From NCBI GenBank assembly GCA_937879955.1, contig CALFMK010000001.1:5461-69460 (forward strand): a stretch of DNA of 64,000 nt, given 5' to 3'. A program made the translations under genes and the position numbers. Shown one piece after another: positions 1-62,166 of the stretch (the stretch's first letter is position 1; each line of letters starts with the position of its first letter). The notes beneath the pieces are model-generated. The model was given only the letters and a program-made list of their open reading frames with translations, did not search any database and had not been told where the DNA came from. This DNA is from an uncultured bacterium (lineage in GTDB: Bacteria; Patescibacteriota; Minisyncoccia; Phycocordibacterales; Phycocordibacteraceae).

Positions 1-377
1 TTCTTCTGGAACTGCAGGCTGTTGCGGGCCGGCCACAGCGCGAAGCGGGCGATGAGGAAGCCGAAGAGGACGTTGAGGAGCACGAGGCCGAGGAACGAGT
101 ACAGGTACGCCTCGTCCTTCACGGCGTCGATGGTGTCCGGCAGGCTGCTCGTGGTGGTCGCGTTCTCTGCGAGCGCCTGGGCTATCTGCGTCGTGATGGT
201 CTCCACGGTGCGCTCCTGGGCGTAGTGCACGCCCCACACGAACACCACGATCGAGATCAGGGCGAGCACGATCTGCAGCCCGACGACATGGATCGCCGTC
301 TTCACGAACAGGTTGTACCGGTACTTATCGATTAAGTCGGTAACCCACGCCGCGGACGGTTTCGAAGAGAGGGGCAT
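1..377 (-). CDS. sensor histidine kinase, N-terminal fragment (continues beyond window start)
   Basis: Minus-strand frame is open from the ATG at 377-375 to position 1. It is absent from the ORF track because no stop lies in the window. Translation MPLSSKPSAAWVTDLIDKYRYNLFVKTAIHVVGLQIVLALISIVVFVWG...LYSFLGLVLLNVLFGFLIARFALWPARNSL shows two hydrophobic helices flanking a short loop, as in OmpR-partner kinases. It lies directly downstream of the response regulator and overlaps its 3' end. Start codon uncertain. Confidence 0.5.
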   Translation of the reverse strand, partial: MPLSSKPSAAWVTDLIDKYRYNLFVKTAIHVVGLQIVLALISIVVFVWGVHYAQERTVETITTQIAQALAENATTTSSLPDTIDAVKDEAYLYSFLGLVLLNVLFGFLIARFALWPARNSLQFQK

Positions 378-999
378 CTGCATAGGTATCGAGCTTCTTG
401 CGAAGATTCTTCATGTGTACATCAAGCACGTTCGAGAAGCCAGGGAAGTCGAAGCTCCAGACATGGTCGAGGATGCTCTCGCGCGTGAGGGCCTCGTCCG
501 GGTGGCGCATGAAGTACTCGAGGAGCGAGTACTCCTTGAGCGTGAGGGAGAGCGGCTTGCCGCCCTTGGTCACGGTCCGCGCCCCGGAGTCGAGCTCGAT
601 GTCGCGGACGGAGAGCTTCGACGGGAGGCTCTGCTCAGGACGGCGGAGCACCGCGTTGATGCGGGCCACGAGCTCCTCGAACGAGAACGGCTTCGCGAGG
701 TAGTCGTCGGCGCCGGTGTTGAGGAGCTCCACCTTGTACTCGGTCTCGTCGCGGGCCGTGAGGATGATGATCGGGGTCTTCACGCCCTCCTTCCGAGCCT
801 CGCGCGTGATGGTGGCGCCGTCGACGCCCGGGAGCATGAGGTCGAGCAGGATGAGGTCGTACTCGTCCCGGTAGAGGAGGATGCGGGTCTTCGCCTTCTC
901 GCTCTCCGCGATCCAGTCCACGGCGAAGCCCTTCGACTCGAGGCCGCGCTTCAGGCCCTCGGCGAGCTTCGCTTCGTCTTCAACGATGAGTATGCGCAT
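325..999 (-). CDS. OmpR/PhoB-family response regulator
   Basis: Receiver motifs MRILIVEDE, LILLDLMLPGVDG, ILTARD and AKPF, followed by a winged-helix output domain (LTLKEYSLLEYFMRHPDEALTRESILDHVW...VDVHMKNLRKKL...TVRGVGYRL). Confidence 0.92.
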   Translation of the reverse strand: MRILIVEDEAKLAEGLKRGLESKGFAVDWIAESEKAKTRILLYRDEYDLILLDLMLPGVDGATITREARKEGVKTPIIILTARDETEYKVELLNTGADDYLAKPFSFEELVARINAVLRRPEQSLPSKLSVRDIELDSGARTVTKGGKPLSLTLKEYSLLEYFMRHPDEALTRESILDHVWSFDFPGFSNVLDVHMKNLRKKLDTYADAPLFETVRGVGYRLNR

Positions 1000-1050
1000 G
1001 GGTAGAGGATTTATGGCTAATCGCGTATGGGAAGACTCTATCTATTAGAG

Positions 1051-1070
1051 CATGAAGCCTTCATGAAGGA
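1051..1070. promoter_or_regulatory. direct-repeat box CATGAAGCCTTCATGAAGGA (two CATGAAG half-sites 11 bp apart) upstream of the response-regulator gene
   Basis: Lies 52-71 nt upstream of the RR start codon. A 17/20 match in the same orientation occurs at 14977-14996 at the 5' end of the hybrid kinase gene. An 11-bp repeat phase is typical of OmpR-family sites. Confidence 0.4.
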
Positions 1071-1080
1071 TGGTTCAGAA

Positions 1081-1108
1081 AGGAAAAAGACCCGCAGGAG
1101 CGCGGGTC
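1081..1108 (-). terminator. intrinsic terminator (minus strand)
   Basis: Minus strand reads GACCCGCG-CUCCU-GCGGGUC followed by UUUUUCCU. It ends a minus-strand transcript coming from the ORF-free region at 1.1-1.6 kb. Confidence 0.6.
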
Positions 1109-1599
1109 CTCTGAAGGATCAGGAGACGCAGGACGGGATCGCTGGGCGCGACCCCGTCCTGCCGATATTCCTGCGCGGAACGATGCGCACAGGAATCTAT
1201 CGAGGGTGCGAGCCACCTGCCAGAGGCAGACAGCGGTGCCGCTTCCGCTCGGGTGAGGGCACCATACCACATAAAGAAATCCGCCTCACTGATGAGGCGG
1301 ACTGGACAAGGAAAGAGCGGGGAAGCCGGGCGCAGAACGGAAGCTGCTCGCTAGAGGGAGGAACGAGCTTTCTCCATTCTGCGCCGGGCCCGCGCTTGTC
1401 GTCGCTGGCGGGGCTCATTTCGCCGGCGACTGGCGCGTCGTGCCGGAAGATACGAGGGGTACTCCCGGCACGTGCATCCTCCCATAGGCAGGGCGAGCGT
1501 CAAGCGATGCGGGAAGTCGTATCCATTCGCGCACCGCACCACGATTCCCGGGTCCGTCTATGGGTCAAAAAACGGCCTCACGAAAGGCTTTTTCGAAGT

Positions 1600-1780
1600 T
1601 GTGTCTTGCCTCTGTCCGGGAACGTTTCGTGCTGGTTTATGCACAAGGAAGATTGGGTGAAGAGCCCGTATCATACGTAGGTCAACGCAGCCGAATGCAG
1701 TCGGAAGGATGCGGCGGGACGCGCTACGGCGCCCCCGAACGCGGTCCGAAGTGGAGCGAAAACCCTGCCAGCGTCCGAAG
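1600..1780 (+). promoter_or_regulatory. candidate cobalamin (B12) riboswitch in the nrdA leader
   Basis: AAGGAAGAUUGGGUGAAGAGCCCG (1645-) resembles the conserved GGGAAnnnGGUGnnAAnCCnG core. CAGUCGGAAGG resembles the GGGAAGG element. AGCGAAAACCCUGCC (1755-1769) resembles the B12 box AGCCnGGAGACCUGCC. It sits directly upstream of nrdA. Matching was done by eye against the remembered consensus only. Confidence 0.45.
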
Positions 1781-1830
1781 CCAAGGCTGACTTATAAATG
1801 TGCCGTGTAACCTACGGGATTACCTACCAT

Positions 1831-4719
1831 ATGAAGCAGGTCAAGAAGCGGAACGGGAGCATCGTCGACTTCGAGGCGACGAAGATTACTGACGCATTGC
1901 GAAAATCCTTCGCGTATTGCGAGGTCGCGATAGACGAGGCGGGGCTCGAGACGCTCACCAAGGGCGTCCTTGAGGACCTCTCGGCGAAGTTCGGCGACGA
2001 GGCGACTCCCTCCGTGGAGCATGTACAGGACCTGGTAGAGCTCGCGCTCATGGAGGCGGGCTACCTCACCGTGGCGAAGCACTACATCGTGTACCGCTAC
2101 GAGCATGCGAAGGTCCGCGAGGAGAAGAAGCAGGAGACCCTCGAGAAGATCGAGGAGGAGGGTCTCCTCATCACCACCGCGTCCGGGAAGCAGGAGCGCT
2201 TCAACGAGACCAAGCTCCGCCAGACCCTCGAGCATCTCGCGAAGGAGGACCAGATGGCGGGCATCGACATCGACCACATCCTCTCCCAGCTCAAGTACGA
2301 GCTCTATGAGGGTATGACCACGGCCGAGGTGGGGAAGGCGCTCATCATGGTGGTCCGCTCGATGATCGAGCGCGACCCGGCGTACTCGCGCCTGGCCGCC
2401 CGTCTCCTCCTGAACCGTCTCTACGCCGAGGTCTTCGGCACGGAGTTCGACAGCAAGAACCCGTACGATTCCGTCGAGCGCGTGTTCGAGGCGAACATGA
2501 AGCGGCTTGTGGCGAACGGCGACCTCGACGAGCGCATGGCCGAGTTCGACCTGAAGAAGCTCGCGCGCGCGATGAAGCTCGAGAACGACCAGCTCTTCGA
2601 GTACATGGGCCTCGAGATCATGATCAGCCGCTACTGCATGGAGGACCCGAAGGCCAAGCGCACCCTCGAGATCCCGCAGATGCTCTGGATGCGCGTGGCC
2701 ATGGGCCTCGCCATCGCCGAGAAGCCGGAGGACCGCGAGCGCGTGGCGCTCGAGTTCTACGACGCGCTCTCGAACTTCTACTACACCCCGGGCGGCCGCA
2801 CCCTCTTCCAGGCAGGCGCGAAGAAGGCGCAGCTTTCCAACTGCTTCCTCAACACCGTGCCTGATTCCCTCGAGGGCATCTTCAAGTCCATCTCGGACAA
2901 CGCCCAGTACCTGAAGTGGTCGGGAGGCACCGGCACCGACTGGACCCCGGTCCGCGCGACGGGTTCCTTCATCAAGGGTACCGGCGTGCCTTCCCAGGGC
3001 ATCGTGCCGTTCCTCAAGATCGCGAACGACGTGAACCTCGCCATCAACCGCTCCGGCAAGCGCCGCGGCGCCGGCTGCGTGTACCTCGAGACCTGGCACC
3101 ACGACATCGAGGACTTCCTCGAGCTCCGCAAGAACACCGGAGACGAGCGCCGCCGCACGCACGACATCAACACCGCGAACTGGATCCCGGACCTGTTCAT
3201 GAAGCGGGTGCGCGACAACGGCATGTGGACCCTCTTCAGCCCGAGCGAGGTGCCTGACCTCCACGACCTCTACGGCGCAGCCTTCGAGAAGCGCTACATG
3301 GAGTACGAGGCTATGGCGGACGCGGGCGGCATGGAGCTCTGGAAGCGCATCCCGGCGACCGACCTCTGGAAGAAGATGATCGGCATGCTCTTCGAGACGG
3401 GTCATCCATGGATCACCTGGAAGGACCCGATCAACGTCCGCTCCCCGCAGGATCACGCGGGCGTCGTGCACAACTCGAACCTCTGCACCGAGATCACCCT
3501 CAATACGAACGAGGACGAGACCGCCGTCTGTACGATCGGCTCCCTCAACTTCGCGAAGTTCGTCGTTACCGGCGAGGACGGCGTGGCTCGCTTCGACCAC
3601 GAGCTCGTGGCGCGCTACACGCGCATCGCGATCCGCATGCTCGACAACGTCATCGACCTCAACTTCTATCCGACGGAGGACGCACGTCGCGGCAACACCC
3701 GCCACCGTCCGGTGGGCCTCGGCGTCCGCGGCTACCATGACGCGCTCTACGGCCTGAACATCCAGTTCGACTCGCCTGAGGCGCTCAACTTCGCCGACGA
3801 GAGCATGGAGGTCGTCGCGTACTACGCGATCCTCGGCTCGTCCGAGCTCGCGAAGGAGCGCGGCACCTACTCGACCTACAAGGGATCGAAGTGGGACCGG
3901 GACATCTTCCCGCAGGACACCCTCGACCTCCTCGAGAAGGAGCGCGGCGAGTCCGTGAAGCTGAAGCGCGGCGGCAAGCTCGACTGGACCCCGGTCCGCG
4001 AGCACGTGAAGAAGTACGGCATGCGCAACAGCAACACCATGGCGATCGCGCCGACCGCGTCGACCGCGAACCTCGTCGGCTGCATCCCGTGCGTCGAGCC
4101 GATCTACAAGAACATCTACGTGAAGTCGAACAAGGAAGGGGAGTTCGTCGTCGTGAACAAGTACCTCGTCGAGGACCTCAAGAAGGCGAACCTCTGGAGC
4201 GCCGGCATGCTCAACCGCATCAAGTACGCGGACGGCAGCATCCAGGGCATCATCGAGATTCCGCGCGCGCTCCGCGAGAAGTACAAGGAGGTCTTCGAGA
4301 TCGACGGCAAGTGGCTCGTCGAGGCGGCGGCTCGTCGCGGCAAGTGGATCGACCAGTCCCAATCCCTGAACATCTTCTATAACGGAACCTCCGGAAAGGA
4401 CCTCTCCGACATCTACTTCCTCGCGTGGGAGATGGGCCTCAAGACGACCTATTACCTCCGCACCCTCGGCGCGTCCCAGGTTGAGAAGGCGACCGTCTCG
4501 ACCGTTGAGTACGGCTCGACCCACATCCGCGGAGGATCGACCCTCGCTGAGGTCGCTGCTGCGACCGTCGTAGAGGAGGTGGCCGTCGCGGCCCCGGTTA
4601 TCGAGGAGGTGCCCGCGCTCAGCGTCCCGAGCGGATTCTCGGCTGCGGAATGGCAGGCCAAGATGGCTCGCGTCGCCGCAGGCGAGGAGGCGGGCGTGTG
4701 CGAATCGTGCGAAAGCTAA
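1831..4719 (+). CDS. nrdA: ribonucleotide-diphosphate reductase large subunit, class Ia
   Basis: N-terminal ATP-cone (KRNGSIVDFEATKITDAL), a class I catalytic core (NLCTEI region) and a C-terminal Cys pair (CESCES). Followed by nrdB. Start moved from track position 1798 to the ATG at 1831, where the ATP-cone begins. Confidence 0.93.
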   Translation: MKQVKKRNGSIVDFEATKITDALRKSFAYCEVAIDEAGLETLTKGVLEDLSAKFGDEATPSVEHVQDLVELALMEAGYLTVAKHYIVYRYEHAKVREEKKQETLEKIEEEGLLITTASGKQERFNETKLRQTLEHLAKEDQMAGIDIDHILSQLKYELYEGMTTAEVGKALIMVVRSMIERDPAYSRLAARLLLNRLYAEVFGTEFDSKNPYDSVERVFEANMKRLVANGDLDERMAEFDLKKLARAMKLENDQLFEYMGLEIMISRYCMEDPKAKRTLEIPQMLWMRVAMGLAIAEKPEDRERVALEFYDALSNFYYTPGGRTLFQAGAKKAQLSNCFLNTVPDSLEGIFKSISDNAQYLKWSGGTGTDWTPVRATGSFIKGTGVPSQGIVPFLKIANDVNLAINRSGKRRGAGCVYLETWHHDIEDFLELRKNTGDERRRTHDINTANWIPDLFMKRVRDNGMWTLFSPSEVPDLHDLYGAAFEKRYMEYEAMADAGGMELWKRIPATDLWKKMIGMLFETGHPWITWKDPINVRSPQDHAGVVHNSNLCTEITLNTNEDETAVCTIGSLNFAKFVVTGEDGVARFDHELVARYTRIAIRMLDNVIDLNFYPTEDARRGNTRHRPVGLGVRGYHDALYGLNIQFDSPEALNFADESMEVVAYYAILGSSELAKERGTYSTYKGSKWDRDIFPQDTLDLLEKERGESVKLKRGGKLDWTPVREHVKKYGMRNSNTMAIAPTASTANLVGCIPCVEPIYKNIYVKSNKEGEFVVVNKYLVEDLKKANLWSAGMLNRIKYADGSIQGIIEIPRALREKYKEVFEIDGKWLVEAAARRGKWIDQSQSLNIFYNGTSGKDLSDIYFLAWEMGLKTTYYLRTLGASQVEKATVSTVEYGSTHIRGGSTLAEVAAATVVEEVAVAAPVIEEVPALSVPSGFSAAEWQAKMARVAAGEEAGVCESCES

Positions 4720-4767
4720 TAGCTGGCACAAAGGCTGACTTACAAGAAGCGTTAACACTCGCGAACT

Positions 4768-5802
4768 ATGCCCATCAACAAAGGTGCTGCTCCCGTGAAC
4801 ATTAACAACCGCAGGATCATCAACGGCGGAGACGCCGACGTGATGCAGCTCTACCCGATGAAGCACACGTTCGCGTGGGACGCGTACATGGCGGGTAACA
4901 GCAACCACTGGCTTCCGACGGAGATCAGCATGCAGCGCGACATCGAGCAGTGGAAGTCGACGACCGTGCTCTCGGACGACGAGCGCAGGGCGTTCGAGAC
5001 CGTGCTCGGATTCTTCACCACGGCCGATTCGATCGCCGCGAACAACATCGTGCTCGCCATCTACAAGCACATCACGAGCCCGGAGTGCCGCATGTACCTC
5101 CTGCGCCAGGGATACGAGGAGGCGATCCATACGCACGCGTACCAGTACATCGTGGAGTCGCTCGGCATGGACGAGTCGAAAATCTTCAACATGTACCGCG
5201 AGGTGGAGGCGATCTACAACAAGGACAACATGGTGCTGCGCCTCAACGAGGGCATCTTCTCGCCGGACTTCAAGACCGGCACGCTCGAGAACGACCAGCT
5301 CTTCGTGGAGAACCTCTGCGTCTTCTCGCTCATCATGGAAGGCATCTTCTTCTACAGCTCGTTCGCCGTCATGTTCGGCTTCCAGCGCCAGAACAAGCTC
5401 ACGGGCGCCGCGGAGCAGATCCAGTACATCATGCGCGACGAGTCCCAGCACCTTAACTTCGGCGTGAACCTGATTAACACGATCAAGGAGGAGCAGCCTG
5501 AGGTGTGGACCCCTGAGTTCCAGGAGCGCATCATCGGCATGGTGAAGCGCGCGGTGCAGCTCGAGTACGAGTTCGCTACCACGGTCTTCCCGAAGGGCAT
5601 CTTCGGCATGAACGCAGCAGGCTTCAAGCAGTACATCGAGCATATCGCCGACCGCCGTCTCGCGTCGGTAGGCCTTCCGGCGCAGTACAACGTCGAGAAC
5701 CCGTTCCCGTGGATGGGCGAGGCGGTGGACCTGAACAAGGAGAAGAATTTCTTCGAGACCCGCGTGACCGAGTACAAGACGGGCGGGCAGTTGAGCTGGT
5801 AA
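4768..5802 (+). CDS. nrdB: ribonucleotide-diphosphate reductase small subunit, class Ia
   Basis: Di-iron and radical-site motifs FFTTADSI (Asp ligand), EEAIHTHAYQY (ExxH plus Tyr at +7) and MRDESQHLNF. Confidence 0.93.
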   Translation: MPINKGAAPVNINNRRIINGGDADVMQLYPMKHTFAWDAYMAGNSNHWLPTEISMQRDIEQWKSTTVLSDDERRAFETVLGFFTTADSIAANNIVLAIYKHITSPECRMYLLRQGYEEAIHTHAYQYIVESLGMDESKIFNMYREVEAIYNKDNMVLRLNEGIFSPDFKTGTLENDQLFVENLCVFSLIMEGIFFYSSFAVMFGFQRQNKLTGAAEQIQYIMRDESQHLNFGVNLINTIKEEQPEVWTPEFQERIIGMVKRAVQLEYEFATTVFPKGIFGMNAAGFKQYIEHIADRRLASVGLPAQYNVENPFPWMGEAVDLNKEKNFFETRVTEYKTGGQLSW

Positions 5803-5824
5803 TCCTTCTTCCCGTGTTCAAAAA

Positions 5825-5851
5825 AGCGCTCCTTTACGGGAGTGCTTTGTT
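5825..5851 (+). terminator. intrinsic terminator after nrdB
   Basis: AGCGCTCC-TTTAC-GGGAGTGCT hairpin followed by TTGTT. Confidence 0.55.
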
Positions 5852-5863
5852 ATACTAATTCCG

Positions 5864-8257
5864 ATGAAACACGTGGGAAGGCTTCTGGTACTGCTTTTTG
5901 GTGCTTTTATCTTTCCGGGGATGGTCTCTGCAGCCACCTACTACGTTGATGCGACTCTCGGTAATAATTCGAATAACGGCACTGCCGCTAGTACCTCGTG
6001 GCAGACGCTCGCCAAAGTAAACGGCACTACATTCTTGGCTGGCGATAATATCCTCTTTAAGAAGGGAGAGACGTTTACTGGTGTGCTCGTAGCAGGCCAG
6101 AGTGGCACTAATGGGAATCCAATCACGTACGGCTCATATGGGGAGGGTGCGCGCCCAATTATTAATGCCGCTGGAAATAATCATGGATTCGACATCCGGA
6201 CAGGTAAGTCTTATATCAATGTAGCTGGCCTCGAAGTTCGAAACGCGACCTTGAACCAGTTTCTTCTGTTCGCTAATAGTTCGAATATATCGCACGTGTC
6301 CATCCAGGACTCGATAGCTGTAGGGGGAACGAGCGGATTCAATTTACAGGGACCAGGAACGTTTCTAGACATAACAATAAGTAGCAGTACCGCAAGCGGG
6401 TACGCGGGAGGTTCTGCGGTTGGTGTTCGCCTTGGTTCAGGAACCACTTTTGATGGAATTACTCTCGATGGAGTATCGGCGGCTTCTGGAAGTGGGTATC
6501 AGGGCTTCAGTACTGGATCGGGAACCTATTCAAATATTTCGATACTGAACTCATCGTTCACTGGGCATCCATCAAACGGTATTGCGTTTCTGTCTGCAAC
6601 GACGACTAACGTGGTCATTAGGGATACTGTAGCGAGCTTGAATGGAGGAAGTGGGATTTATTTCTTTGGTGTGAAGAGTGGAGTTGAGATTGATAACGTA
6701 ACAGCAAACTCAAATACCCAAAACGGAATAGGATTTGAAGCTGGTGCCATGAATCACATATCAATCGAAGACTCCGAGTTCAACAATAATGGACTTAATG
6801 GAATCGCACTTCTCGGAAGCGGAACCGGAACGTCAACAATCGTTTCTCGGTCGATTGCGTCTGGTAATGATAATGACGGTTTTAATATCTCTGGAAACTG
6901 GCAGAATGTCGTATTCGAGGAAGCGATCGCAAGTGATAATGGTGTAGATGGTATTGGCTCGAACGGAGACGGCTTCAGCTTTCACAACTCGAGCACCGGT
7001 GTAATTAGGAATAGCCAGGCACATAATAATTGGAAGTCAGCCGTAACAAACGTGAATACATCGAGCACGACGGTATATAACAACCTCTTTTCGCATGACA
7101 CCAACGGAACGAATGCCCTCATCACATTCCTAGACAGCGGAAGCCATGCTGCTTACAACAATGTGCTCTATAGCCCTGCACAGGTGGGGTATGGATTGGT
7201 CGCGAATGGTACAACGACACTCATAGCGAGGAATAATATTATTCAAGGTTTTCAGTACGGCGTATCGAAGGGGACGAATGCCTTCTTGGTAGAAGATTAC
7301 AATGACGTTTATGGAGCCAGTACGGCCTCCTACATTGGGCTTACTGGAGGTGTACATTCTATCTCTGTGAATCCAAAGTTTGTCGACGCTGAGGATGATG
7401 ATTTCCGACTACTTCAGTCCTCTCTTGCTATAAATGCAGGTACTACGACGCCCTATGTAACCGATTACCTCGGAAATCCACGCGTCGGCATTCCGGATAT
7501 GGGTGCATATGAGTATCAGGGAATACCTGATATAACAGCACCTTCTATCTACATAATTGCACCAGTGGATCCGGCTACGATATCTGGAACTGTAATTATT
7601 ACCGCATCAGCGACGGATGCTATCGGCGTAGAAGAAGTCGAATTTTTTCTAGATGGAGTATCGCTCGGGGATGATGCATCTGATCCTTATTCATTTTCAT
7701 GGAACTCATCTGCAGTTCCCGATGGCGTATACTCACTTCTCGCAGTTGCACATGATGCTGAAGGGAATTATGCCACCTCCTCTCCTGTCTCCGTCACGGT
7801 CTCGAATGTAATTCAGGAAGCGAGCCATCGCTCTGGTAAGTCCGGTCAGAGTGTCGTACGCACTATCTCTCCGCTCGCAGATTCTGTATTAAATGAAGGA
7901 GAAGCAAAGATATCATCAATAAATCGGCTCATACTCGATAATCGCGCACTTTTTATGCTTGCGCAGGAAAAGGGAATAGTAGTTCCTGAATTCATACTCA
8001 ATATGCTCGATCTCCCTTCGGGCTCGACCATTTCGATATTCTTTAATCGTCCTCTTGCGCTTGGAGCAACTGGCCCAGATGTCACTGCACTCCAGCAGAT
8101 TCTTAAGGATAAGGGCTTCTATGTTTATCAGGAGATAACCGGCTACTACGGACAAGCCACACTACAAGCTGTTGCTGACTACCAGAAGTCACTTGGGCTC
8201 GAATCTCTCGGGTATGTAGGTCCAGCAACAAGGGAAGCCTTGAATGCTGGGATTTGA
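5864..8257 (+). CDS. secreted parallel beta-helix repeat protein with Ig-like module and C-terminal peptidoglycan-binding domain
   Basis: Signal peptide MKHVGRLLVLLFGAFIFPGMVSA. About 400 aa of G/N/S/T-rich repeats (..NGI.F..) typical of right-handed beta-helices. Ig-like segment VEEVEFFLDGVSLGDDASDPYSFSWNSSAVPDGVYSLLAVAHDAEGN. PG_binding_1-like tail GATGPDVTALQQILKDKGFY..GYYGQATLQAVADYQKSLGL. Lies in the low-GC island. Confidence 0.8.
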   Translation: MKHVGRLLVLLFGAFIFPGMVSAATYYVDATLGNNSNNGTAASTSWQTLAKVNGTTFLAGDNILFKKGETFTGVLVAGQSGTNGNPITYGSYGEGARPIINAAGNNHGFDIRTGKSYINVAGLEVRNATLNQFLLFANSSNISHVSIQDSIAVGGTSGFNLQGPGTFLDITISSSTASGYAGGSAVGVRLGSGTTFDGITLDGVSAASGSGYQGFSTGSGTYSNISILNSSFTGHPSNGIAFLSATTTNVVIRDTVASLNGGSGIYFFGVKSGVEIDNVTANSNTQNGIGFEAGAMNHISIEDSEFNNNGLNGIALLGSGTGTSTIVSRSIASGNDNDGFNISGNWQNVVFEEAIASDNGVDGIGSNGDGFSFHNSSTGVIRNSQAHNNWKSAVTNVNTSSTTVYNNLFSHDTNGTNALITFLDSGSHAAYNNVLYSPAQVGYGLVANGTTTLIARNNIIQGFQYGVSKGTNAFLVEDYNDVYGASTASYIGLTGGVHSISVNPKFVDAEDDDFRLLQSSLAINAGTTTPYVTDYLGNPRVGIPDMGAYEYQGIPDITAPSIYIIAPVDPATISGTVIITASATDAIGVEEVEFFLDGVSLGDDASDPYSFSWNSSAVPDGVYSLLAVAHDAEGNYATSSPVSVTVSNVIQEASHRSGKSGQSVVRTISPLADSVLNEGEAKISSINRLILDNRALFMLAQEKGIVVPEFILNMLDLPSGSTISIFFNRPLALGATGPDVTALQQILKDKGFYVYQEITGYYGQATLQAVADYQKSLGLESLGYVGPATREALNAGI

Positions 8258-8284
8258 ATTCTTCTAGAGGACGGCGATAATAAA

Positions 8285-8500
8285 CTATATATAACGTTTA
8301 ATTATCTCAACACTGCCCAAGGTCAGTATGTCTCTACCGACCACTCCGTTCTTACGGGTACTAATTACTTTAATAGCTTCTCGTTCGAGAAAGTACATTA
8401 CCGCAGTGTTCAGAATTAAATTCCTATCCCTCTCCTCTGTAACTAGTAAATCAATCGTTTCAAGGACATCCTCTGGAATATCAAGATTAATTTTAGACAC
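8285..8500 (-). CDS. ribbon-helix-helix (CopG-like) small DNA-binding protein
   Basis: KINLDIPEDVLETIDLLVTEERDRNLILNTAVMYFLERE follows the RHH strand-helix-helix pattern. GTG start, no obvious SD, 23 nt after the upstream ORF. Low GC. Confidence 0.55.
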   Translation of the reverse strand: MSKINLDIPEDVLETIDLLVTEERDRNLILNTAVMYFLEREAIKVISTRKNGVVGRDILTLGSVEIIKRYI

Positions 8501-8523
8501 TGTAAATTCTAAAAATTAAAGCT

Positions 8524-9003
8524 CTAGCTGAACTTCAGCATTTTCGTTTCTAAATTTTCCAGCAATATCTGATAACGCGCATCGAGAGGATTTAACTTGT
8601 AACGTATTTGACGTATAACGATTTTGTATAATTTCCCAACTTGCCCTCGCGTTTCTATACGAATACGGAAGGCTGCTGTCATTCCTGTTGGTATCTTGCA
8701 GTAAACTATCGTGCCTAGGGCAACTTGAGTTATGTTCTCTCCTCGGCATGAAATATCAGTTTTTAATATTGAACTCTGAGCCGTTCCTTCAATCTGATAT
8801 ACAAAACCGGTTGGCTTCTTGCCCGAGGCAACCGAAAGAGGAACGTATAGATCTTTCCGAGGAGCAGTTATGTTAATGATAAATATAAAATTCCCGATTA
8901 CGCGGTCAGGTCCATTAGGAATTCGCGTTCTCCTAAGATTCTCTTCAGTGTCTTTAATATCGACCAAGACATCTTTCTCCGGTGGAATGATTGGTTTATC
9001 CAT
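8524..9003 (-). CDS. hypothetical protein (low-GC island)
   Basis: 159-aa ORF co-oriented with and immediately upstream of the RHH gene. I recognise no motif. Confidence 0.5.
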   Translation of the reverse strand: MDKPIIPPEKDVLVDIKDTEENLRRTRIPNGPDRVIGNFIFIINITAPRKDLYVPLSVASGKKPTGFVYQIEGTAQSSILKTDISCRGENITQVALGTIVYCKIPTGMTAAFRIRIETRGQVGKLYKIVIRQIRYKLNPLDARYQILLENLETKMLKFS

Positions 9004-9116
9004 ATAATCAGATAGCTCTTTGTATAAGATCAGTATGGGTTTAGGAATATGAAAAATATCTCAAAATTGCATAAAGTAATTATGGAGACAGTGGCAGAAA
9101 GCTGATCTAGTCACTT

Positions 9117-9148
9117 CGAAAAGAAGCACCGGACCACATGTCCGGTGC
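9117..9148 (-). terminator. intrinsic terminator (minus strand) after the 9182-9484 gene
   Basis: GCACCGGAC-ATGTG-GTCCGGTGC on the minus strand, followed by TTCTTTTCG. Confidence 0.6.
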
Positions 9149-9181
9149 TAACTAATATGAATCCTATAAGAAAGAGGCAAA

Positions 9182-9484
9182 TTACTTCTTACCCCAGCGC
9201 CATGATGGCTCTTCGCCAAAGCGTAGGCAGATCCGGTAGAGGGAATAGGAAAGAAGGGCGATAACGCCTGTGAACTCTAAGACTCCGAAAATGATGTCCC
9301 GGGCCCCTACATGGCTCTCGACCGCGGCACCGACCCATCCGAAGAATATAAGGAAGGCGAAGGTGAAGAGGAGGGCATAGAAGACCGTCACGGCCCATCC
9401 CTGCCATGAGACAGGGAACCAGCCCCACCCGAATTCCTTCGCCCGGAACCACAGCTTCCGGGCCTTCCTTTTGTGTTCGCTCAT
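9182..9484 (-). CDS. small integral membrane protein
   Basis: 100 aa with two or three hydrophobic helices (WAVTVFYALLFTFAFLIFFGWVGAAV, IIFGVLEFTGVIALLSYSLY). Confidence 0.6.
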   Translation of the reverse strand: MSEHKRKARKLWFRAKEFGWGWFPVSWQGWAVTVFYALLFTFAFLIFFGWVGAAVESHVGARDIIFGVLEFTGVIALLSYSLYRICLRFGEEPSWRWGKK

Positions 9485-9643
9485 GGGCTTATAATACTGT
9501 AAATAGGCCGTTTTATCCAGGCTTGACTCCTAAAAATGAGGGTCTCCTGAACATGAAGAATTGGCTTTCCACGTCTTGACAGTGGTTGTCAACCCTGCTA
9601 CTATGGGCCTTGTCAGGCCGTCCGCAAGGGCGGTCTTTCATTT

Positions 9644-10258
9644 ATGCCAGTTATTGCAGTAGTAGCCCTTATGGGCTTCCTGTTTTTACCGGGTAGCGCA
9701 GGAGCGCCGGCACAAGCGGAGACGATTTCCGCGCCGGTCGCGATAGCGGGGGCGGCTGAAGAGCCTTCCAAACGCCTGGCCACCTCGAAAGAGGCGGCCC
9801 GGACCTACCAGGTAAGTATGACCGCTTACAATGCCGTTCCCGGCCAGACGGATGCCAACCCATTCGTCACCGCGAGCGGCATGGCCTCGAATCACGAGGT
9901 TGTGGCTGCGCGATCGCGCGATATGGCGGCTGAACTCCCGTTCGGCACCGTCATACGCTTCGAGCGCTCGACGAAGGACACGCCTTCGTGCCGTTTCGGC
10001 GAAGTCGAGCACTTGATGGGGTACCGCATCATCGCGGACACCATGCATGAGCGCTGGAGCCACAAGGTGGACGTGCTCTTCGACCAGACCGATACGGTCA
10101 TGGTCGAGGGACGCATCGTCAACCCGGCGCTCGCCCTCGGTATCTGCGACGACGTGACGATCACGGTCGTGGGAACTGTCGATATGACGGATCCGCCGAC
10201 CACGCAGGCCGAGCTCGCGGCGATGTTCGCCACGCCGACCTACGCGATAGCGAAATAA
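9644..10258 (+). CDS. secreted 3D-domain (RlpA/MltA-like double-psi beta-barrel) cell-wall protein
   Basis: Signal peptide, then YQVSMTAYNAVPGQTDANPFVTASG, the hallmark of 3D-domain proteins. TTGACA-N17-TACTAT promoter at about 9583-9611. Confidence 0.75.
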   Translation: MPVIAVVALMGFLFLPGSAGAPAQAETISAPVAIAGAAEEPSKRLATSKEAARTYQVSMTAYNAVPGQTDANPFVTASGMASNHEVVAARSRDMAAELPFGTVIRFERSTKDTPSCRFGEVEHLMGYRIIADTMHERWSHKVDVLFDQTDTVMVEGRIVNPALALGICDDVTITVVGTVDMTDPPTTQAELAAMFATPTYAIAK

Positions 10259-10330
10259 ATGAATCTCCTTCATGAAGAGTCCTGCTCGTAAGAGCCGGGC
10301 TCTTCTTACGTTTGGTATACTGAACCCAGT

Positions 10331-11578
10331 ATGAACATCACCCCGAAGATCCTCGTCGCAGCCGCGCTCATGGCGACGTTCGCGGTCGCAGGCGCTATGC
10401 CCGCTACCGCGCTCGCGGCAAGTAGCAGGTCCTCCTCAAAATCCTCGATAGAGATATCGGGATGGATCCCGTACTGGAGGACGGAGCTCGGCACGAAGGA
10501 CGCGAAGGCGCACATCTCGCAGATGGCAGAGGTGAACCCGTTCGGCTACACGGTGACGAGTACCGGGAATCTGAACGACGCCATGAAGATCGGCGGCGCC
10601 GACTGGCAGAGCCTCATCGCAGCCGCGAAGAAGAAGGGCGTGAAGGTCATCCCGACGGTCATGTGGAGCGATACGGCGTCCATCTATAGCGTCCTCTCGA
10701 ACCCGGTCACGCGCGCGTCGCACGTGAAGGCTATCGCGAAGGCCGTTAAGGACAACGGCTTCGACGGCATCGACATCGACTACGAAGGCAAGACCGCGGA
10801 GACCCGCGTCTACTTCTCTGCGTTCCTCGCCGAGCTCAAGGCCGAGCTCGGCCGCAGCAAGCAGCTCGACTGCACCATCGAGGCCCGCATGCCGCTCGAG
10901 GCGCGCTTCTCGGGAACTCCTCCGGCGAACATCGAGTACGCGAACGACCTCCCGGAGATCAACAAGAGCTGCGATCGCGTGCGCATCATGACCTACGACC
11001 AGCAGACCGCAGACCTGCAGCTGAACGCATCGGCACGCCGCGCAGGCGAGATCTATGCGCCTGTGGCGGACGTGAAGTGGGTGGAGAAGGTCGTTGAGTA
11101 CATGGGCAAGGATATCGACAAGAAGAAGATGGTCCTCGGCGTCCCGACGTACGGCTATATCTACCAGATCATGCCGAACTCGGATGGCAGCGGCTACGGC
11201 TACACGAAGCTCGAGGCCTTCAATCCGGCGTACGCGACGCAGCTCGCGAAGGAGCTCGGCATCACGCCGGAGCGCAACCGCGCGGGCGAGATGTCCTTCA
11301 GCTACGTGCCGAAGGACCAGCCGGCCTCGCTCCCGACGCAGAGCGCGCTCTCGCGGCTCGCGCCGCGGAGCACCTCGTCGGCGAGCCTCGCTGCCGCAGG
11401 TGCCCTCGCGCTTGCGAAGAGCAAGAAGCAGCAGGCCCCGTTCGAGTACATCACCTGGAGCGACGCGGGCGCGATCAAGCAGAAGGTGGACCTCGCGAAG
11501 AAGATGAAGCTCGCGGGCGTGGCGGTCTTCAAGATCGACGGAGGATCCGACCCGAAGATGTGGGACGTGCTGAAGTAG
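10331..11578 (+). CDS. secreted glycoside hydrolase family 18 protein
   Basis: Signal peptide and the GH18 catalytic motif FDGIDIDYEG. TATACT lies 9 nt upstream of the ATG. Confidence 0.85.
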   Translation: MNITPKILVAAALMATFAVAGAMPATALAASSRSSSKSSIEISGWIPYWRTELGTKDAKAHISQMAEVNPFGYTVTSTGNLNDAMKIGGADWQSLIAAAKKKGVKVIPTVMWSDTASIYSVLSNPVTRASHVKAIAKAVKDNGFDGIDIDYEGKTAETRVYFSAFLAELKAELGRSKQLDCTIEARMPLEARFSGTPPANIEYANDLPEINKSCDRVRIMTYDQQTADLQLNASARRAGEIYAPVADVKWVEKVVEYMGKDIDKKKMVLGVPTYGYIYQIMPNSDGSGYGYTKLEAFNPAYATQLAKELGITPERNRAGEMSFSYVPKDQPASLPTQSALSRLAPRSTSSASLAAAGALALAKSKKQQAPFEYITWSDAGAIKQKVDLAKKMKLAGVAVFKIDGGSDPKMWDVLK

Positions 11579-11622
11579 AACGTGAGACACGAGAAAAGCC
11601 CCTGCGCGAGCGGGGGCTTTTC

Positions 11623-11970
11623 CTATTCCGTCGTTTGCTGGATGTCCTGCGTCTGTTCGTCGAGCATGTCGATGAGTGCGGCGTAATAGGTCGGACGCGT
11701 AGCAACCTTCTCTTCCGTAGCTGCGTTAATCGCGCGTATCGCGTCCTCGAGCGTGAATCCGGCAATAGCGGCCCGCGTCTCTTCCTTGCGTGCATCGCTC
11801 CAGAGGGACATATCGGCGCCGGGCCCGTACGTCTCGCCGACCATTCGTCGCACGCTCGCTTCCTTCGCCATGTCCAGAGCGCCGGTCTCTGCGGCCGGAC
11901 TCTCGGAGAGGTTGTCATTCGCTGCGGCATTCGGGAACTGCAGGATCTTTCCGAACGGTCTTCCTTCCAT
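11623..11970 (-). CDS. hypothetical protein
   Basis: Track ORF 11623-12060 trimmed to the internal ATG (MEGRPFGKILQFPN...) because the upstream part overlaps the VanY gene. TAGGAT lies 10 nt upstream. Confidence 0.5.
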   Translation of the reverse strand: MEGRPFGKILQFPNAAANDNLSESPAAETGALDMAKEASVRRMVGETYGPGADMSLWSDARKEETRAAIAGFTLEDAIRAINAATEEKVATRPTYYAALIDMLDEQTQDIQQTTE

Positions 11971-11992
11971 GGGTATGTAAATCCTAGTAGTG

Positions 11993-12874
11993 CTAATCGA
12001 ACAGCTCCGCAAGGTACTCGTCGATGGTGCGCTGGTCGAGGTCGTAGAACCACGCGTCATCGTCGTGCAGCCGCTCGGCGAGGTCCCTGCCTACGAAGCG
12101 CCAGTGCCACGGCTCGTACTGGTAGTACGTGTTGCCCTTGGGGTAGGAGAGCACAAAGCCGTACTTCCAGGCGTTCTTCGTGAGCCATTCGTACTCCTCG
12201 GTCTTGTCGAAGCCAGCGAACGTTCCGCCCACCGTCGTCGTCGTGAAGTCGACGGCGGTGCCGAGCTGGTGCTCGGAGTAGCCCTGATCTGCGGAGAACG
12301 AATTGGCTCCGGACCCGTACTTCACGGTGTAGCCGGACTTGAGCGACGCCTGGTTCGCGAACGAGCGGTACGAGGACGCCACCTTGAGGTCGAGGCCGTC
12401 CTCCTTCGCGTCGTCGAGCAGGTCCTCGAGGAACGGGTCTACGTCGGCATGTATCTCGTACGCGCGTCCCTCCTGGAACGCGTACGCGGCATCGATAACG
12501 GTCAGTCTCGACGGGACGTAGTTCTCGTTCAGGAAGTAGACCTTCGAGTACTTCGCGAGCAGCTCGGGATCGGTCTTCGCGAGCTTCTCGAGGGTCCCTA
12601 CGGTCCCCGAGAGGTCCTTGAGCTGGCTCTCGAACTTACCGTTCTTCTGCTGCTCGCGCCGGAGCTCCCCGGCGAGGCTGATGCTCTCCTCGGTCTTCTC
12701 GCCGAGCTTTCCGGTAAGCTCGGCCTCCTTCGCCTCGGCCGTCGCACGGGCCTCGGTAAGCGCGCTCTTCGCCGCCGCCAGCTCTGACGAGAGGGAATAG
12801 AGGCCGTACATCGCGAACCCTGCGAGCGCGAGGACGACGAGGCCGATGAGTGCGAGAAGGGTGCTGCGGGACAT
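11993..12874 (-). CDS. D-alanyl-D-alanine carboxypeptidase, VanY/M15B family, membrane-anchored with coiled coil
   Basis: N-terminal TM helix, a coiled-coil segment, then M15B motifs SSYRSFANQ, SEHQLGTAVD and EPWHWRF. Confidence 0.85.
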   Translation of the reverse strand: MSRSTLLALIGLVVLALAGFAMYGLYSLSSELAAAKSALTEARATAEAKEAELTGKLGEKTEESISLAGELRREQQKNGKFESQLKDLSGTVGTLEKLAKTDPELLAKYSKVYFLNENYVPSRLTVIDAAYAFQEGRAYEIHADVDPFLEDLLDDAKEDGLDLKVASSYRSFANQASLKSGYTVKYGSGANSFSADQGYSEHQLGTAVDFTTTTVGGTFAGFDKTEEYEWLTKNAWKYGFVLSYPKGNTYYQYEPWHWRFVGRDLAERLHDDDAWFYDLDQRTIDEYLAELFD

Positions 12875-12897
12875 ATGGCTATTCTCTCACAGGTCCC

Positions 12898-14979
12898 CTA
12901 TGCGCGCTCGATAGTAGCGAGAATCTCCTCGATCTCAGCGAGCCCCGCCGGCTTCGTGAGATGGTGGTCGAACCCGGCCTTCCGGGCCTTCTGTATGTCG
13001 GATTCCTGGCCGTAGCCGGTGAGTGCGACGAGCGTCGCGGCGAACCCATCAGCGCGGAGCGCCGTCGCGACCTCGTAGCCCTCCATGTCCGGCAGGCCGA
13101 TGTCGAGCAGGATCACGTCAGGACGGAACGCGGGCGCGCGGGCGATAGCCTCCTCGCCGGTATATGCGGTTTCGGTACGGTTCCCGCGGAGCGTGAGGAG
13201 CTTCGCGAGCGCGTCGGCCGCGGCGCGGTTGTCGTCCACGACGAGGATGCGGAACCCGTCACGCGCCTTTGGCGCTGCTACGGCCCGTGCCCGCACCCCG
13301 ACGGCTCCCTCCTGCGGGAGCGGGATGCGGACGGTGAACCGGCTCCCGTGTCCGGGCCCGTCGCTCTCGGCCTCGATCGTGCCGTCGTGCATCTCCACCA
13401 GGTTCTTGGTAAGCGAGAGGCCGATGCCGAGACCTGCGTGCATCTTGCCGGGCTGCTCGATCTGGAAGAACGGTTCGAAGACGTGCGCAAGGAGCGCGGC
13501 GTCCATGCCGATGCCGGTGTCCGTCACCGTGACGACGGCCTCGGTCCCGTCCGTGCGTGCCACGAGCTCGATACGGCCTCCGGGCTCGGTGTACTTCGCC
13601 GCGTTGTTGAGGAGGTTCACGAACACCTGCTCGAGACGCACGGGATCGGCCTCGAGGCGGATCGCCTCGTCCGGCATGTCGATCGAGAGCTCGTGCTTGA
13701 GGGACGCCATGAGCGGCGCCACGGTACGCTGGCTCCTTGCGAGCACGGTCTGGAGGTCGATGTGCTCCTTCTGGAGGGAGAGCTTCTCGCGGGTGATGCG
13801 CGAGATGTCGAGCAGGTCGTCGAGGAGATGCCGCATGGTCTTCAGGTGGTCGGTCATGCCTTCGGCGAGCTCGCTCGAGCGAGCGGCATCCGGCCGCTCG
13901 AGCTTCATGATCTCGAGCGAGGACATGAGCGGGGCGAGCGGGTTGCGCAGCTCGTGCGCGAGGGTGGCGATGAAGCGGCTCTTCGCCTCGTCCTCACGGC
14001 GGATCCGCTCCACGGCGTCCTCGAGCCTGCGCACGTTGTCGCGCAGGACGTTCGCGGTGTCCTTGCGCTCCTCCGCGATGGAGACGAGCACGAGGAATAT
14101 GAGGGAGAGCACGATCACGAATATCTCGGTCTGCAGGAGGTCGTATCCGAGCGTCCCTGTACCGGACGCGAGGCTGAGGAACGCGGTGCCGCCGAGCGCG
14201 AGCGCGGCGTTCAGGAAGAGCGCGAGCGTCATGAAGCGCGGGCCGATGCGCAGCGCGATCCAGAGGAACGGGATGAGGATAAGGTATACGAGCGGCACCT
14301 GCGCGATCTCGCGGTATGGGGTCCAGTACAGGAGGAGGCCGGTCCCGACGACGGCCGCTATCGCGACCCAGGCCTCGACGAGCTCGCCCTTCGTGCGCTG
14401 GAACCTGAAGCGCGGCAGCCACTTGATGAGGAGCGGCGTCACGACGAGCATGGAGAGGATGTGCCCGATCCACCACGGGATGAAGGTACCCATGAGGCCG
14501 CGGGGCATGGCGCGCTCGGCCAGGGTGAAGGTGAGGGTTCCGAGCGCCGGGATGAGGATGGTGACGAAGAGCGCGACGAACACGAACATGAGGGTGTCGG
14601 GAGCCTTCGAGAAGGTGTTGCGGTATCCGAGCTTCCGGAGGAGCCAGGTGCCCACGCTTGCCTGTATGGCGTTCGCCGCCGCAAGCCCGAGCGCCACGAA
14701 CAGCACGCTCCCGTTCAGGAGCTGGTGCGCGAGAGCTGCCAGGAATACCGCAGGCCAGAGCGCGATGCCGCCGAGGAGGAGTCCGCCGAGCGCGATGCCG
14801 GATGCCGGCCAGATGAGGGCCGGGGCGGTCGGGACGGAGGAATAGATATGCGAGAAGACCTGGGCGCAGAACAGGTACGCGCAGAACAGCAGCGCCATGT
14901 AGAGGAGCGACCGTCCGGAATAGGGGAAGCGAGGCATAGACGGGTGGATGGCGTTCTCCCTAGGATACATTCTTTTCAT
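12898..14979 (-). CDS. hybrid sensor histidine kinase (multi-TM MASE1-like sensor, HisKA, HATPase, C-terminal receiver)
   Basis: About 300 aa of TM helices. H-box LAHELRNPLAPL. ATP-lid boxes NLLNNAAKYT, DTGIGM and GLGIGL. Receiver ILVVDDN..ILLDIGLPDMEG..LTKP. Start could be an internal Met (14970 or 14937). Confidence 0.85.
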   Translation of the reverse strand: MKRMYPRENAIHPSMPRFPYSGRSLLYMALLFCAYLFCAQVFSHIYSSVPTAPALIWPASGIALGGLLLGGIALWPAVFLAALAHQLLNGSVLFVALGLAAANAIQASVGTWLLRKLGYRNTFSKAPDTLMFVFVALFVTILIPALGTLTFTLAERAMPRGLMGTFIPWWIGHILSMLVVTPLLIKWLPRFRFQRTKGELVEAWVAIAAVVGTGLLLYWTPYREIAQVPLVYLILIPFLWIALRIGPRFMTLALFLNAALALGGTAFLSLASGTGTLGYDLLQTEIFVIVLSLIFLVLVSIAEERKDTANVLRDNVRRLEDAVERIRREDEAKSRFIATLAHELRNPLAPLMSSLEIMKLERPDAARSSELAEGMTDHLKTMRHLLDDLLDISRITREKLSLQKEHIDLQTVLARSQRTVAPLMASLKHELSIDMPDEAIRLEADPVRLEQVFVNLLNNAAKYTEPGGRIELVARTDGTEAVVTVTDTGIGMDAALLAHVFEPFFQIEQPGKMHAGLGIGLSLTKNLVEMHDGTIEAESDGPGHGSRFTVRIPLPQEGAVGVRARAVAAPKARDGFRILVVDDNRAAADALAKLLTLRGNRTETAYTGEEAIARAPAFRPDVILLDIGLPDMEGYEVATALRADGFAATLVALTGYGQESDIQKARKAGFDHHLTKPAGLAEIEEILATIERA

Positions 14980-14996
14980 GAAGCCTACATGAAAGG
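14977..14996. promoter_or_regulatory. second copy of the CATGAAG direct-repeat box (CATGAAGCCTACATGAAAGG)
   Basis: 17/20 identity and the same orientation as 1051-1070. Lies at the 5' end of the hybrid kinase gene, in the divergent region shared with the SET gene. Confidence 0.4.
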
Positions 14997-15044
14997 CCCG
15001 CGCCTTGCTACGGAGCCGTGCTTCGCCGTACTATGGGCTCCACT

Positions 15045-15455
15045 ATGACAGCAAAAGGAAAGTACGTACCCGGCGAGTGGACGCTCGCCGTGAAGCGGTC
15101 GAGCGCCGGCCTCGGCCTGTTCGCGGGCGAGCGCATCCCGAAGGGCGCCTGCGTCATCGAGTATGTCGGACGCACGGTATCGAAGGAGGAGAGCGAGACG
15201 AGCAAGAGCAAGTACCTCTTCGAGATCTCGAAGAACAAGACCATCGACGGGAAGCCGAAGATAAACAAGGCGGGGTACATCAACCATGCCTGCAATCCGA
15301 ACTGCGAGACGGAGATAGCGAAAGGCCGCATCTTCGTGATGGCGATCAAGGACATAAAGCCCGGAGACGAACTCACCTACGACTACGGGAAGGAGTACTG
15401 CCTCGAGCACTGCGTCCCGTGCCGCTGCAGCGCGAAGAAGCACCTGTACGGATAG
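15045..15455 (+). CDS. SET-domain protein (putative lysine methyltransferase)
   Basis: GLGLFAGERIPKGACVIEYVG, NHACNPNC, ELTYDY and a Cys-rich tail CLEHCVPCRC. Start set to the ATG at 15045, 10 nt after TACTAT. The track start at 15018 is in the same frame. Confidence 0.8.
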   Translation: MTAKGKYVPGEWTLAVKRSSAGLGLFAGERIPKGACVIEYVGRTVSKEESETSKSKYLFEISKNKTIDGKPKINKAGYINHACNPNCETEIAKGRIFVMAIKDIKPGDELTYDYGKEYCLEHCVPCRCSAKKHLYG

Positions 15456-62006: not shown

Positions 62007-62010
62007 CGCC

Positions 62011-62130: not shown

Positions 62131-62138
62131 GGAAGGGA

Positions 62139-62166
62139 AAAGCCGGAGTAGGGATGCTCCGGCTTT
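62139..62166 (+). terminator. intrinsic terminator closing the LOG / tiny-ORF transcription unit
   Basis: AAAGCCGGAG-TAGGGATG-CTCCGGCTTT followed by T. Confidence 0.65.

Follow-up and report, generated by a model that had tools for sequence, protein, structure and literature searches.

Regulators of the OmpR/PhoB family bind tandem repeats with a period of 10–11 bp, and autoregulation is common among them. PhoB of Escherichia coli activates its own operon (phoBR) and a small set of other promoters; PhoP binds tandem direct repeats and activates from near −35. Here, we describe a short tandem box that occurs twice in a 64,000-nucleotide stretch of contig CALFMK010000001.1 (the whole stretch that was analysed, called the window below), which comes from an uncultured bacterium of the Patescibacteriota. 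One copy stands upstream of an operon for an OmpR-type response regulator (RR) and its partner histidine kinase (HK), the other upstream of a hybrid histidine kinase gene. Comparison of related sequences makes it quite likely that the box is the operator of this RR (325–999) and that it mediates positive autoregulation as well as activation of a predicted operon composed of the hybrid kinase and a VanY-type carboxypeptidase.

The present box is similar to the pho box of E. coli PhoB (CTGTCAT-N4-CTGTCAY), which also consists of two 7-bp direct repeats with an 11-bp period, stands where the −35 element would be and stops about 10 bp short of the −10. Both have the core nTCAT in common, but the half-sites differ (cTTCATG here, CTGTCAT in the pho box). 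The targets are also unlike those of the Pho regulon: we found the hybrid kinase with VanY and, in relatives, a gene for a YggT-like membrane protein, and no pst or pho genes were seen beside the boxes. By analogy only, the system resembles VanR-VanS, as it combines an OmpR-family RR and a small membrane kinase with a predicted target operon that includes a VanY-family carboxypeptidase; in contrast to VanR-VanS, no vanH, vanA or vanX genes are present here.

A perfect tandem repeat with an 11-bp period, TGAAGATTTnnTGAAGATTT, is bound by the OmpR-family regulator CopR of Corynebacterium glutamicum (PMC3140484). This site, in the divergent intergenic region beside the gene of CopR itself, governs the operons on both sides and may be the only one of its kind in the genome (PMC3140484). 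The opposite strand of our box contains TGAAG-N6-TGAAG, a resemblance in the TGAAG core that may be due to chance. The two sites differ in position: our box stands right next to the −10, the CopR site far upstream of one target promoter. Additionally, in contrast to CopR-CopS, no copper- or metal-resistance genes were seen near the present boxes.

In the literature, we found neither a described binding site nor a structure for a regulator from Patescibacteria; searches for regulons of this group (the candidate phyla radiation, CPR) gave nothing relevant, and a search with the motif string returned primer sequences only. These bacteria are largely uncultivated and have very small genomes with few regulators. 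For a large clade of Paceibacteria, the box thus offers a testable piece of wiring, made up of a 17-bp operator, the promoter arrangement box, 9–10 nt, TAnnnT, and two or three target operons. It could be used for regulon prediction in metagenome-assembled genomes, and it leads to a corrected start for the hybrid-kinase gene. As the proposed mechanism is that of a textbook autoregulated two-component circuit, the value of the case lies in being a well-supported new example and not a new principle.

Two boxes in front of signalling genes

The features on which the analysis relies are as follows:

1–383, minus strand: 5′ part of the cognate histidine kinase gene (ATG at 383), overlapping the end of the RR gene and truncated by the window edge
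325–999, minus strand: OmpR/PhoB-family RR gene, 224 aa (Response_reg and Trans_reg_C)
1035–1040, minus strand: predicted −10 of the RR promoter, TAGAGT, 10 nt downstream of the box
1051–1068, minus strand: RR-operon box, CTTCATGAAGGCTTCATG on the gene strand, with two TTCATG half-sites 11 bp apart; 32.9 bits
1085–1112, minus strand: terminator-like hairpin with a T-run, directly upstream of the RR box
11993–12874, minus strand: VanY-type D-Ala-D-Ala carboxypeptidase gene (PF02557, 8e-33), starting 23 nt after the kinase stop codon
12898–14937, minus strand: MASE1-HisKA-HATPase_c-REC hybrid histidine kinase gene (Pfam), 679 aa from the ATG at 14937
14962–14967, minus strand: predicted −10 of the hybrid-kinase promoter, TATCCT, 9 nt downstream of the box
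14977–14994, minus strand: hybrid-kinase box, TTTCATGTAGGCTTCATG on the gene strand; 28.9 bits
15005–15034, plus strand: predicted divergent SET promoter, TTGCTA, 18 nt, TACTAT, with its −35 beginning 11 nt beyond the box
15045–15455, plus strand: SET-domain protein gene (PF00856, 2e-24), 136 aa from the ATG at 15045, divergent from the hybrid kinase

An earlier note on this DNA had pointed to two 20-mers on the plus strand, each made of two CATGAA(G/A) half-sites with an 11-bp period, at the 5′ ends of two minus-strand signalling genes. Direct reading of the window returned exactly these sequences and positions: CATGAAGCCTTCATGAAGGA at 1051–1070, with half-sites starting at 1051 and 1062, and CATGAAGCCTACATGAAAGG at 14977–14996, with half-sites starting at 14977 and 14988. 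Pfam agrees that the genes which the boxes face encode an OmpR-family RR and a MASE1-HisKA-HATPase-REC hybrid kinase. The 11-bp direct repeat also stands, and only the way of writing the unit had to be changed. On the gene strand the box reads cTTCATGAAGGCTTCATG, and its conserved part is better given as TTCATG-N5-TTCA(T/G)G, a 17-bp tandem repeat.

Both boxes stand out clearly in the window, which makes up about 11% of an apparently ~591-kb contig and to which the scanning of this genome was confined. A consensus 19-mer with up to 3 mismatches was found at these two places only, compared with 0.01 expected from 100 dinucleotide-preserving shuffles; a third listed match is the echo of the second site on the opposite strand. 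CATGAA-N5-CATGAA with one mismatch allowed likewise occurs only there (0.03 expected). With a weight matrix built from orthologous sites, the RR box scores 32.9, the hybrid-kinase box 28.9 and the best unrelated position of the window 11.5 bits. A looser search gave three further TTCA-N7-TTCA matches (33745 on the plus strand, 17486 and 10335 on the minus strand), all with low weight-matrix scores and none with the −10 geometry described below.

Comparison of the RR and hybrid-kinase loci detected no similarity outside the box, so it is not a piece of a longer repeat. This bears on the idea that the two copies reflect chance resemblance, a mobile-element fragment or an alternative-sigma promoter, which we regard as very improbable. 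The copies are indeed short (17–20 bp) and only two in the window. However, between 0.01 and 0.03 were expected by chance, the loci are dissimilar around the box, the RR-promoter region (1000–1100) has no match in a plasmid collection, and the site is kept in dozens of species whose flanks have diverged. A promoter for an alternative sigma factor does not fit either, as the half-sites are 10 and 21 nt from the −10, neither at 16–18, and the −10 (TAnnnT) belongs to the sigma-70 and not to the extracytoplasmic function type.

Conservation of the box in related genomes

To the set of RR orthologues each species contributed one genome. It comprised 80 loci with 64–96% amino acid identity, labelled Paceibacterota, Parcubacteria, Kaiserbacteria, Adlerbacteria and similar, and 76 of them had readable upstream sequence. 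A promoter was counted as positive when at least 12 of the 14 scored positions matched TTCATGAAnnnTTCATG on the gene strand, no more than 140 bp upstream of the ATG. By this measure, 70 of the 76 loci have the box ahead of their RR gene, compared with 0.15 expected by chance; 43 loci reach 13/14 and 21 reach 14/14. The other 914,010 positions of the same loci yielded 15 matches at 12/14 and none at 13/14, and at least 7 of these 15 fall inside the RR coding sequence (codons for LEYFM).

Conservation follows the tandem unit closely. TTCA-N7-TTCA is near-invariant across 71 aligned RR-promoter sites, and in the alignment anchored on the box some columns outside the scoring are also conserved, namely C at −1 and C/G at +10. 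Exactly 10 nt downstream, again outside the scoring columns, is an nAtAcT hexamer (A in 55/71, T in 60/71). The flanks carry essentially no information content, upstream as well as downstream. More distant lineages have TTCATGAATnnTTCAGG or TTCATTAAnnnTTCAGG in place of the box, with TTCA-N7-TTCA retained.

The protein is conserved in parallel. The receiver domain of the RR (PF00072, 9e-28, residues 3–115) has E7/D8, D53, T81 and K103 in the translation, and the winged-helix DNA-binding domain (PF00486, Trans_reg_C, 5e-26, residues 147–222) covers the full profile length. Its recognition helix, SNVLDVHMKNLRKKL, is invariant in 80/80 orthologues, and the wing, FET(V/I)RG(V/I)GY(R/K), is invariant or nearly so in these 80. 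The invariant helix thus parallels the invariant TTCA-N7-TTCA core of the box, a pattern that fits joint retention of regulator and operator throughout.

The assignment of the RR stops at family level. It reaches none of the NCBIfam equivalog cut-offs, the best being RppA (213 vs 250). We rejected PhoB (TIGR02154, 197.1 vs a cut-off of 296.2; NF007546, 152.6 vs 471), with which neither the cTTCATG half-site nor the targets (hybrid kinase and VanY, YggT-like) agree, as well as a heavy-metal regulator of the CopR/CusR/CzcR kind (TIGR01387, 202.6 bits vs 279.2) and VanR (127–134 bits vs cut-offs of 350–480). The nearest solved structures by sequence all belong to the OmpR/PhoB family, namely DrrD of Thermotoga maritima (1kgs) and PhoP of Mycobacterium tuberculosis (5ed4, 9ji3), with E-values of 4e-54 and 2e-47. 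They share the receiver and winged-helix architecture, but the kinship is at family level only and the recognition sequences are different. On its sequence, the RR is filed as an OmpR/PhoB-family regulator with a pho-box-like operator and no subfamily.

The 5′ part of the partner kinase gene encodes two transmembrane segments that flank a loop of ~45 aa. In a full-length orthologue (L005, 377 aa), HisKA (127–189) and HATPase_c follow directly after the second transmembrane segment, and no further sensor domain was found in this protein. The window also carries two paralogous OmpR-family RR genes in tandem (43021–43683 and 43885–44547, both on the minus strand), which are 36–38% identical to the RR. 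Each has a near-consensus TTGACA-17-TAnnAT promoter and a Shine-Dalgarno sequence, and a hairpin is present between the two genes. No obvious kinase gene is seen between them.

The second boxed promoter was followed in close orthologues of the hybrid kinase (60–83% identity), namely L081, L082 (the same organism as L089), L083, L084/L085, L090, L091 and L092, that is, seven distinct ones. A metagenome scan with the hybrid kinase gave only four close orthologues (L089–L092); its remaining matches were of a generic kinase or REC kind. The gene order SET, kinase, VanY, GH18 is common to all close orthologues, and the box is found upstream of the kinase in 7/7. It reads TTCATG(T/G)AGGCTTCAT(G/A/T) in L081, L082/L089, L083, L084/L085, L090 and L091 and is more divergent in L092; the variants are TTCATGTAGGCTTCAT(G/A) in five genomes, TTCATGGAGGCTTCATT in L084/L085 and TTCATCTGCGCTTCATT in L092. 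In L090, and again in L091, the RR box and the kinase box are located on one contig.

In alignment A1, which covers the intergenic region between kinase and SET, four blocks are conserved: the SET −10, the SET −35, the box and the kinase −10. The last of these starts with GTA (G and T in 8/8, A in 7/8). The arrangement box, 9 nt, TAnnnT is found in the window and in 5/7 distinct close orthologous loci. The −10 hexamers of the five orthologous genomes are TACTCT, TAGTGT, TATGGT, TACCCT and TAGATT; that of L092 is TCATGC.

The box is absent from MASE1 hybrid-kinase homologues of 43–49% identity (L086–L088), in which the gene order is different. These are probably paralogues or members outside the regulon, and we counted them neither for nor against. 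Since the distant kinases lack the box, membership of the kinase in the regulon appears as a feature of one subclade.

These comparisons also bear on the annotated start of the kinase. The earlier note had left the start between 14979 and an internal ATG at 14937. The ATG at 14979 is inside the box and upstream of the predicted −10, and the one at 14970 is directly upstream of this −10. Orthologous kinases mostly have 666–684 aa; in the four retrieved with a complete N-terminus, the alignment begins at the Met at 14937, so the true start is very probably 14937. A database protein (P0001, 690 aa) that is 100% identical to the window kinase begins at the ATG at 14970, which has no counterpart in the orthologues; its start was probably placed 11 codons too far upstream. 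The adjacency of kinase and VanY is repeated in L081–L085 with gaps of 6–24 nt, and the VanY gene probably shares an operon with the hybrid kinase.

In relatives, the box has at least one more place. Five distinct genomes (L081, L082/L089, L083, L084/L085 and L090) carry it upstream of the YggT-like gene, where it reads TTCATGAGG(C/T)CTTCAC(G/A), or ATCATGAACGCTTCATA in L084/L085, and is followed by an nAnnnT hexamer after 10 nt. All these sites are on the minus strand:

L081, 1337–1354, minus strand: YggT box
L082, 1359, minus strand: YggT box
L083, 1420–1437, minus strand: YggT box
L084/L085, 2426–2443, minus strand: YggT box
L089, 8398–8415, minus strand: YggT box
L090, 8405–8422, minus strand: YggT box

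On the opposite side of the YggT box is a divergent M23-peptidase gene. Its −35 region overlaps the box and its TATGAT or TATCAT is only 6–7 nt before the ATG. The window lacks the YggT-like, M23 and second SET genes, and in it SET directly precedes a DUF167-like open reading frame (ORF). The occurrence of the same box at the same −10 distance before the YggT-like gene suggests that the regulon is small and appears to concern the cell envelope.

The earlier note had named two observations that would count against its idea: scatter of the motif over unrelated positions and its absence from orthologous promoters. We found neither another strong site in the window nor a match of 13/14 or better among the 914,010 other positions, and the box is present at 70/76 RR promoters and 7/7 distinct close hybrid-kinase promoters. 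The regulon that the note proposed around the hybrid kinase is well supported for the kinase itself, as far as its close orthologues go, and has to be widened by at least one further member in relatives, the YggT-like gene.

Promoter architecture and the predicted circuit

On the minus strand, the RR promoter reads CTTCATGAAGGCTTCATG, 10 nt, TAGAGT, 35 nt, ATG, and the hybrid-kinase promoter reads TTTCATGTAGGCTTCATG, 9 nt, TATCCT, 24 nt, ATG (14937). The terminator-like hairpin at 1085–1112, directly upstream of the box, confines the RR promoter to about 85 bp, and comparable hairpins precede the box in L002, L004, L005 and L007. At neither of the two promoters was a TTGACA-like −35 found, and a scan with the sigma-70 consensus gave no canonical promoter at either. 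Other promoters predicted in the same genome are canonical (TTGACA-17-TAGTAT and TTGACA-17-TATCAT for the two paralogous RR genes, TTGCTA-18-TACTAT for SET), so the absence of a −35 is specific to the boxed promoters. The predicted promoters therefore show the geometry of a pho box, with the box in place of the −35 and a spacer of 10 nt (RR, YggT) or 9 nt (hybrid kinase) to TAnnnT/nAtAcT. Transcription is predicted to begin near 1028 (RR) and 14955 (hybrid kinase) on the minus strand and near 15041 on the plus strand for SET.

The RR box can also be read as an inverted repeat with 7-bp arms, CATGAAG-G-CTTCATG, CATG being self-complementary. It is the direct-repeat reading alone that is kept across orthologues: the distal half-site never varies in its outer TT, and the proximal one is not followed by AA. 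The kinase and YggT sites lack an intact TTCATGAA palindrome but retain the 11-bp TTCA repeat. This favours head-to-tail binding of two winged-helix domains, in line with the OmpR/PhoB dimer geometry named in the earlier note, over a symmetric reading, which is not conserved. An RNA hairpin formed by the inverted repeat was rejected, since its arms are 1 nt apart and the box is upstream of the predicted −10.

The same observations help to decide whether a different protein binds here. The box could be a real operator for a paralogous OmpR-family RR, or for an unrelated dimeric repressor on the TTCATGAA palindrome. Such a protein would act on the RR operon and the kinase without belonging to the circuit. 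The paralogues at 43021–43683 and 43885–44547 are candidates, and most RR promoters have a perfect 8-bp palindrome, TTCATGAA, as their distal half-site. Nevertheless, the box stays at the promoter of this RR across 70 species, with the recognition helix of the RR invariant, whereas the paralogues differ in this helix and their own canonical promoters are devoid of the box. Kinase sites (TTCATGTA, TTCATGGA) and YggT sites (TTCATGAG) do not preserve the palindrome but keep the 11-bp TTCA repeat, and abutting 4-bp half-sites would be too close for a typical helix-turn-helix dimer. We consider such an outside binder improbable. Conservation of the box at both promoters in related species instead makes it very probably the binding site of the RR itself.

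The alternative that the RR binds the box as a repressor, occluding the −35 region of weak intrinsic promoters that fire when it is unphosphorylated (negative autoregulation), is in our view similarly unlikely. A protein bound at about −39 to −23 can block the polymerase, and ATGAAG within the box is a 3/6 match to TTGACA with an 18-nt spacer to the −10. However, the boxed promoters have no recognisable −35 and weak −10s (TAGAGT, TATCCT), neighbouring promoters are near consensus, and weak core elements are typical of activator-dependent promoters. Additionally, the fixed distance of 9–10 nt to the −10 across three promoter families corresponds to the activation geometry of the pho box, and repression needs no exact phasing.

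We thus return to activation by the RR. The two-transmembrane histidine kinase encoded directly downstream would phosphorylate the RR on D53. The RR would then dimerise and place its two winged-helix domains head-to-tail on the two TTCATG half-sites, 11 bp (one helical turn) apart. From a box at roughly −39 to −23, 9–10 bp from a weak TAnnnT −10, the bound RR may recruit RNA polymerase in the fashion of PhoB. The predicted outcome is self-activation of the RR–HK operon and activation of the operon of the MASE1 hybrid kinase and VanY.

Autoregulation of the RR–HK operon, as proposed in the earlier note, is supported by the conservation in 70/76 loci, the 11-bp tandem geometry and the place beside the −10, with binding itself a prediction. 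We infer from the sequences the RR as binder, activation over repression, the transcription starts and the signal. Regarding the last, the small sensor without extra domains and the neighbours or targets (VanY, YggT-like, GH18 and a protein with a peptidoglycan-binding domain) could, as a speculation, hint at an envelope-related signal.

Several points weigh against this interpretation, at least in part. The scan of this genome covered 64 kb, about 11% of the contig, so the regulon could have further members. The spacing between box and −10 is not uniform, at 9 nt for the hybrid kinase vs 10 nt for RR and YggT, and the hybrid-kinase site is restricted to one subclade. Six of the 76 RR promoters are without a good tandem box, some of them with a single CTTCATGAAG palindrome only. 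As two more OmpR-family regulators are encoded in the window, one of these might in principle be the binder, and a site over the −35 region could repress rather than activate.

The divergent SET gene and other features of the window

SET orthologues occupy the same divergent position in L081–L085. On the kinase strand, the SET −35 reads GCAAG and the −10 reads ATAcTA, and both are among the conserved blocks of A1. The distance from the box to the SET −35 is 11 nt in 7/8 loci, and the 11-nt sequence itself is variable. Counted from the predicted SET transcription start, the centre of the box would be near −55, a position compatible with co-regulation of SET.

One could go further and take the box as a bidirectional operator, at which a single phosphorylated RR dimer would co-ordinate, in opposite directions, a SET lysine methyltransferase, peptidoglycan-remodelling enzymes (VanY/M23) and a second sensor kinase. 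The constant 11 nt to the SET −35 in 7/8 genomes points this way, as does the YggT box, which overlaps the −35 region of the divergent M23 gene with its apparently leaderless transcript. We find this extension doubtful. If true, it would represent a compact switch of envelope and protein methylation in an ultra-small, probably host-attached CPR bacterium.

In SET (TACTAT, 10 nt), GH18 (TATACT, 9 nt) and, in relatives, M23, the −10 hexamer is only 6–11 nt before the start codon, without a Shine-Dalgarno sequence (15029–15047 and 10312–10333 in the window). This layout suggests leaderless or nearly leaderless mRNAs in the lineage.

A conserved intergenic element (10259–10320) is located between the stop codon of the ORF at 9644–10258 and the GH18 gene (10331–11578), and it is also found upstream of GH18 in L082–L085. 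It reads ATGAAyCTCCTTCATGAAGA and contains the CTTCATGAAG palindrome of the box. It continues into a hairpin with the loop GTAA, in the stem of which changes from one genome to another are compensatory; next comes an extended −10 (TGGTATACT). The element is not a canonical box, as its half-site-like repeats are spaced at 13 bp instead of 11 and stand about 37 nt from the −10. Alternatively, it can be read as a mini-ORF of 10 codons (MNLLHEESCS).

Between the RR promoter and the ribonucleotide reductase (RNR) gene (1798–4719, plus strand; ATP-cone and RNR barrel), about 690 bp (1113–1797) have no convincing ORF. This region holds two more minus-strand terminator-like hairpins (1278–1303 and 1575–1588). 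A search of 1000–1850 found no Rfam family, its sole entry being far under threshold (E 0.28, 15 bits vs 123). Small RNAs, small-protein genes or a long RNR leader may be located here. We rejected a 1283-aa ORF at 1792–5643 on the minus strand as spurious: it is antisense to the ribonucleotide reductase gene and has no Pfam match, and high G+C yields such ORFs.

The G+C content is 0.47–0.48 at about 6000–10000 and 0.52 at 62000–64000, vs 0.61–0.69 elsewhere in the window. The low-G+C region at 6–10 kb encodes a 797-aa protein (5864–8257) with beta-helix, Big_7 and peptidoglycan-binding domains as well as ORFs without a family, and may have been horizontally acquired.

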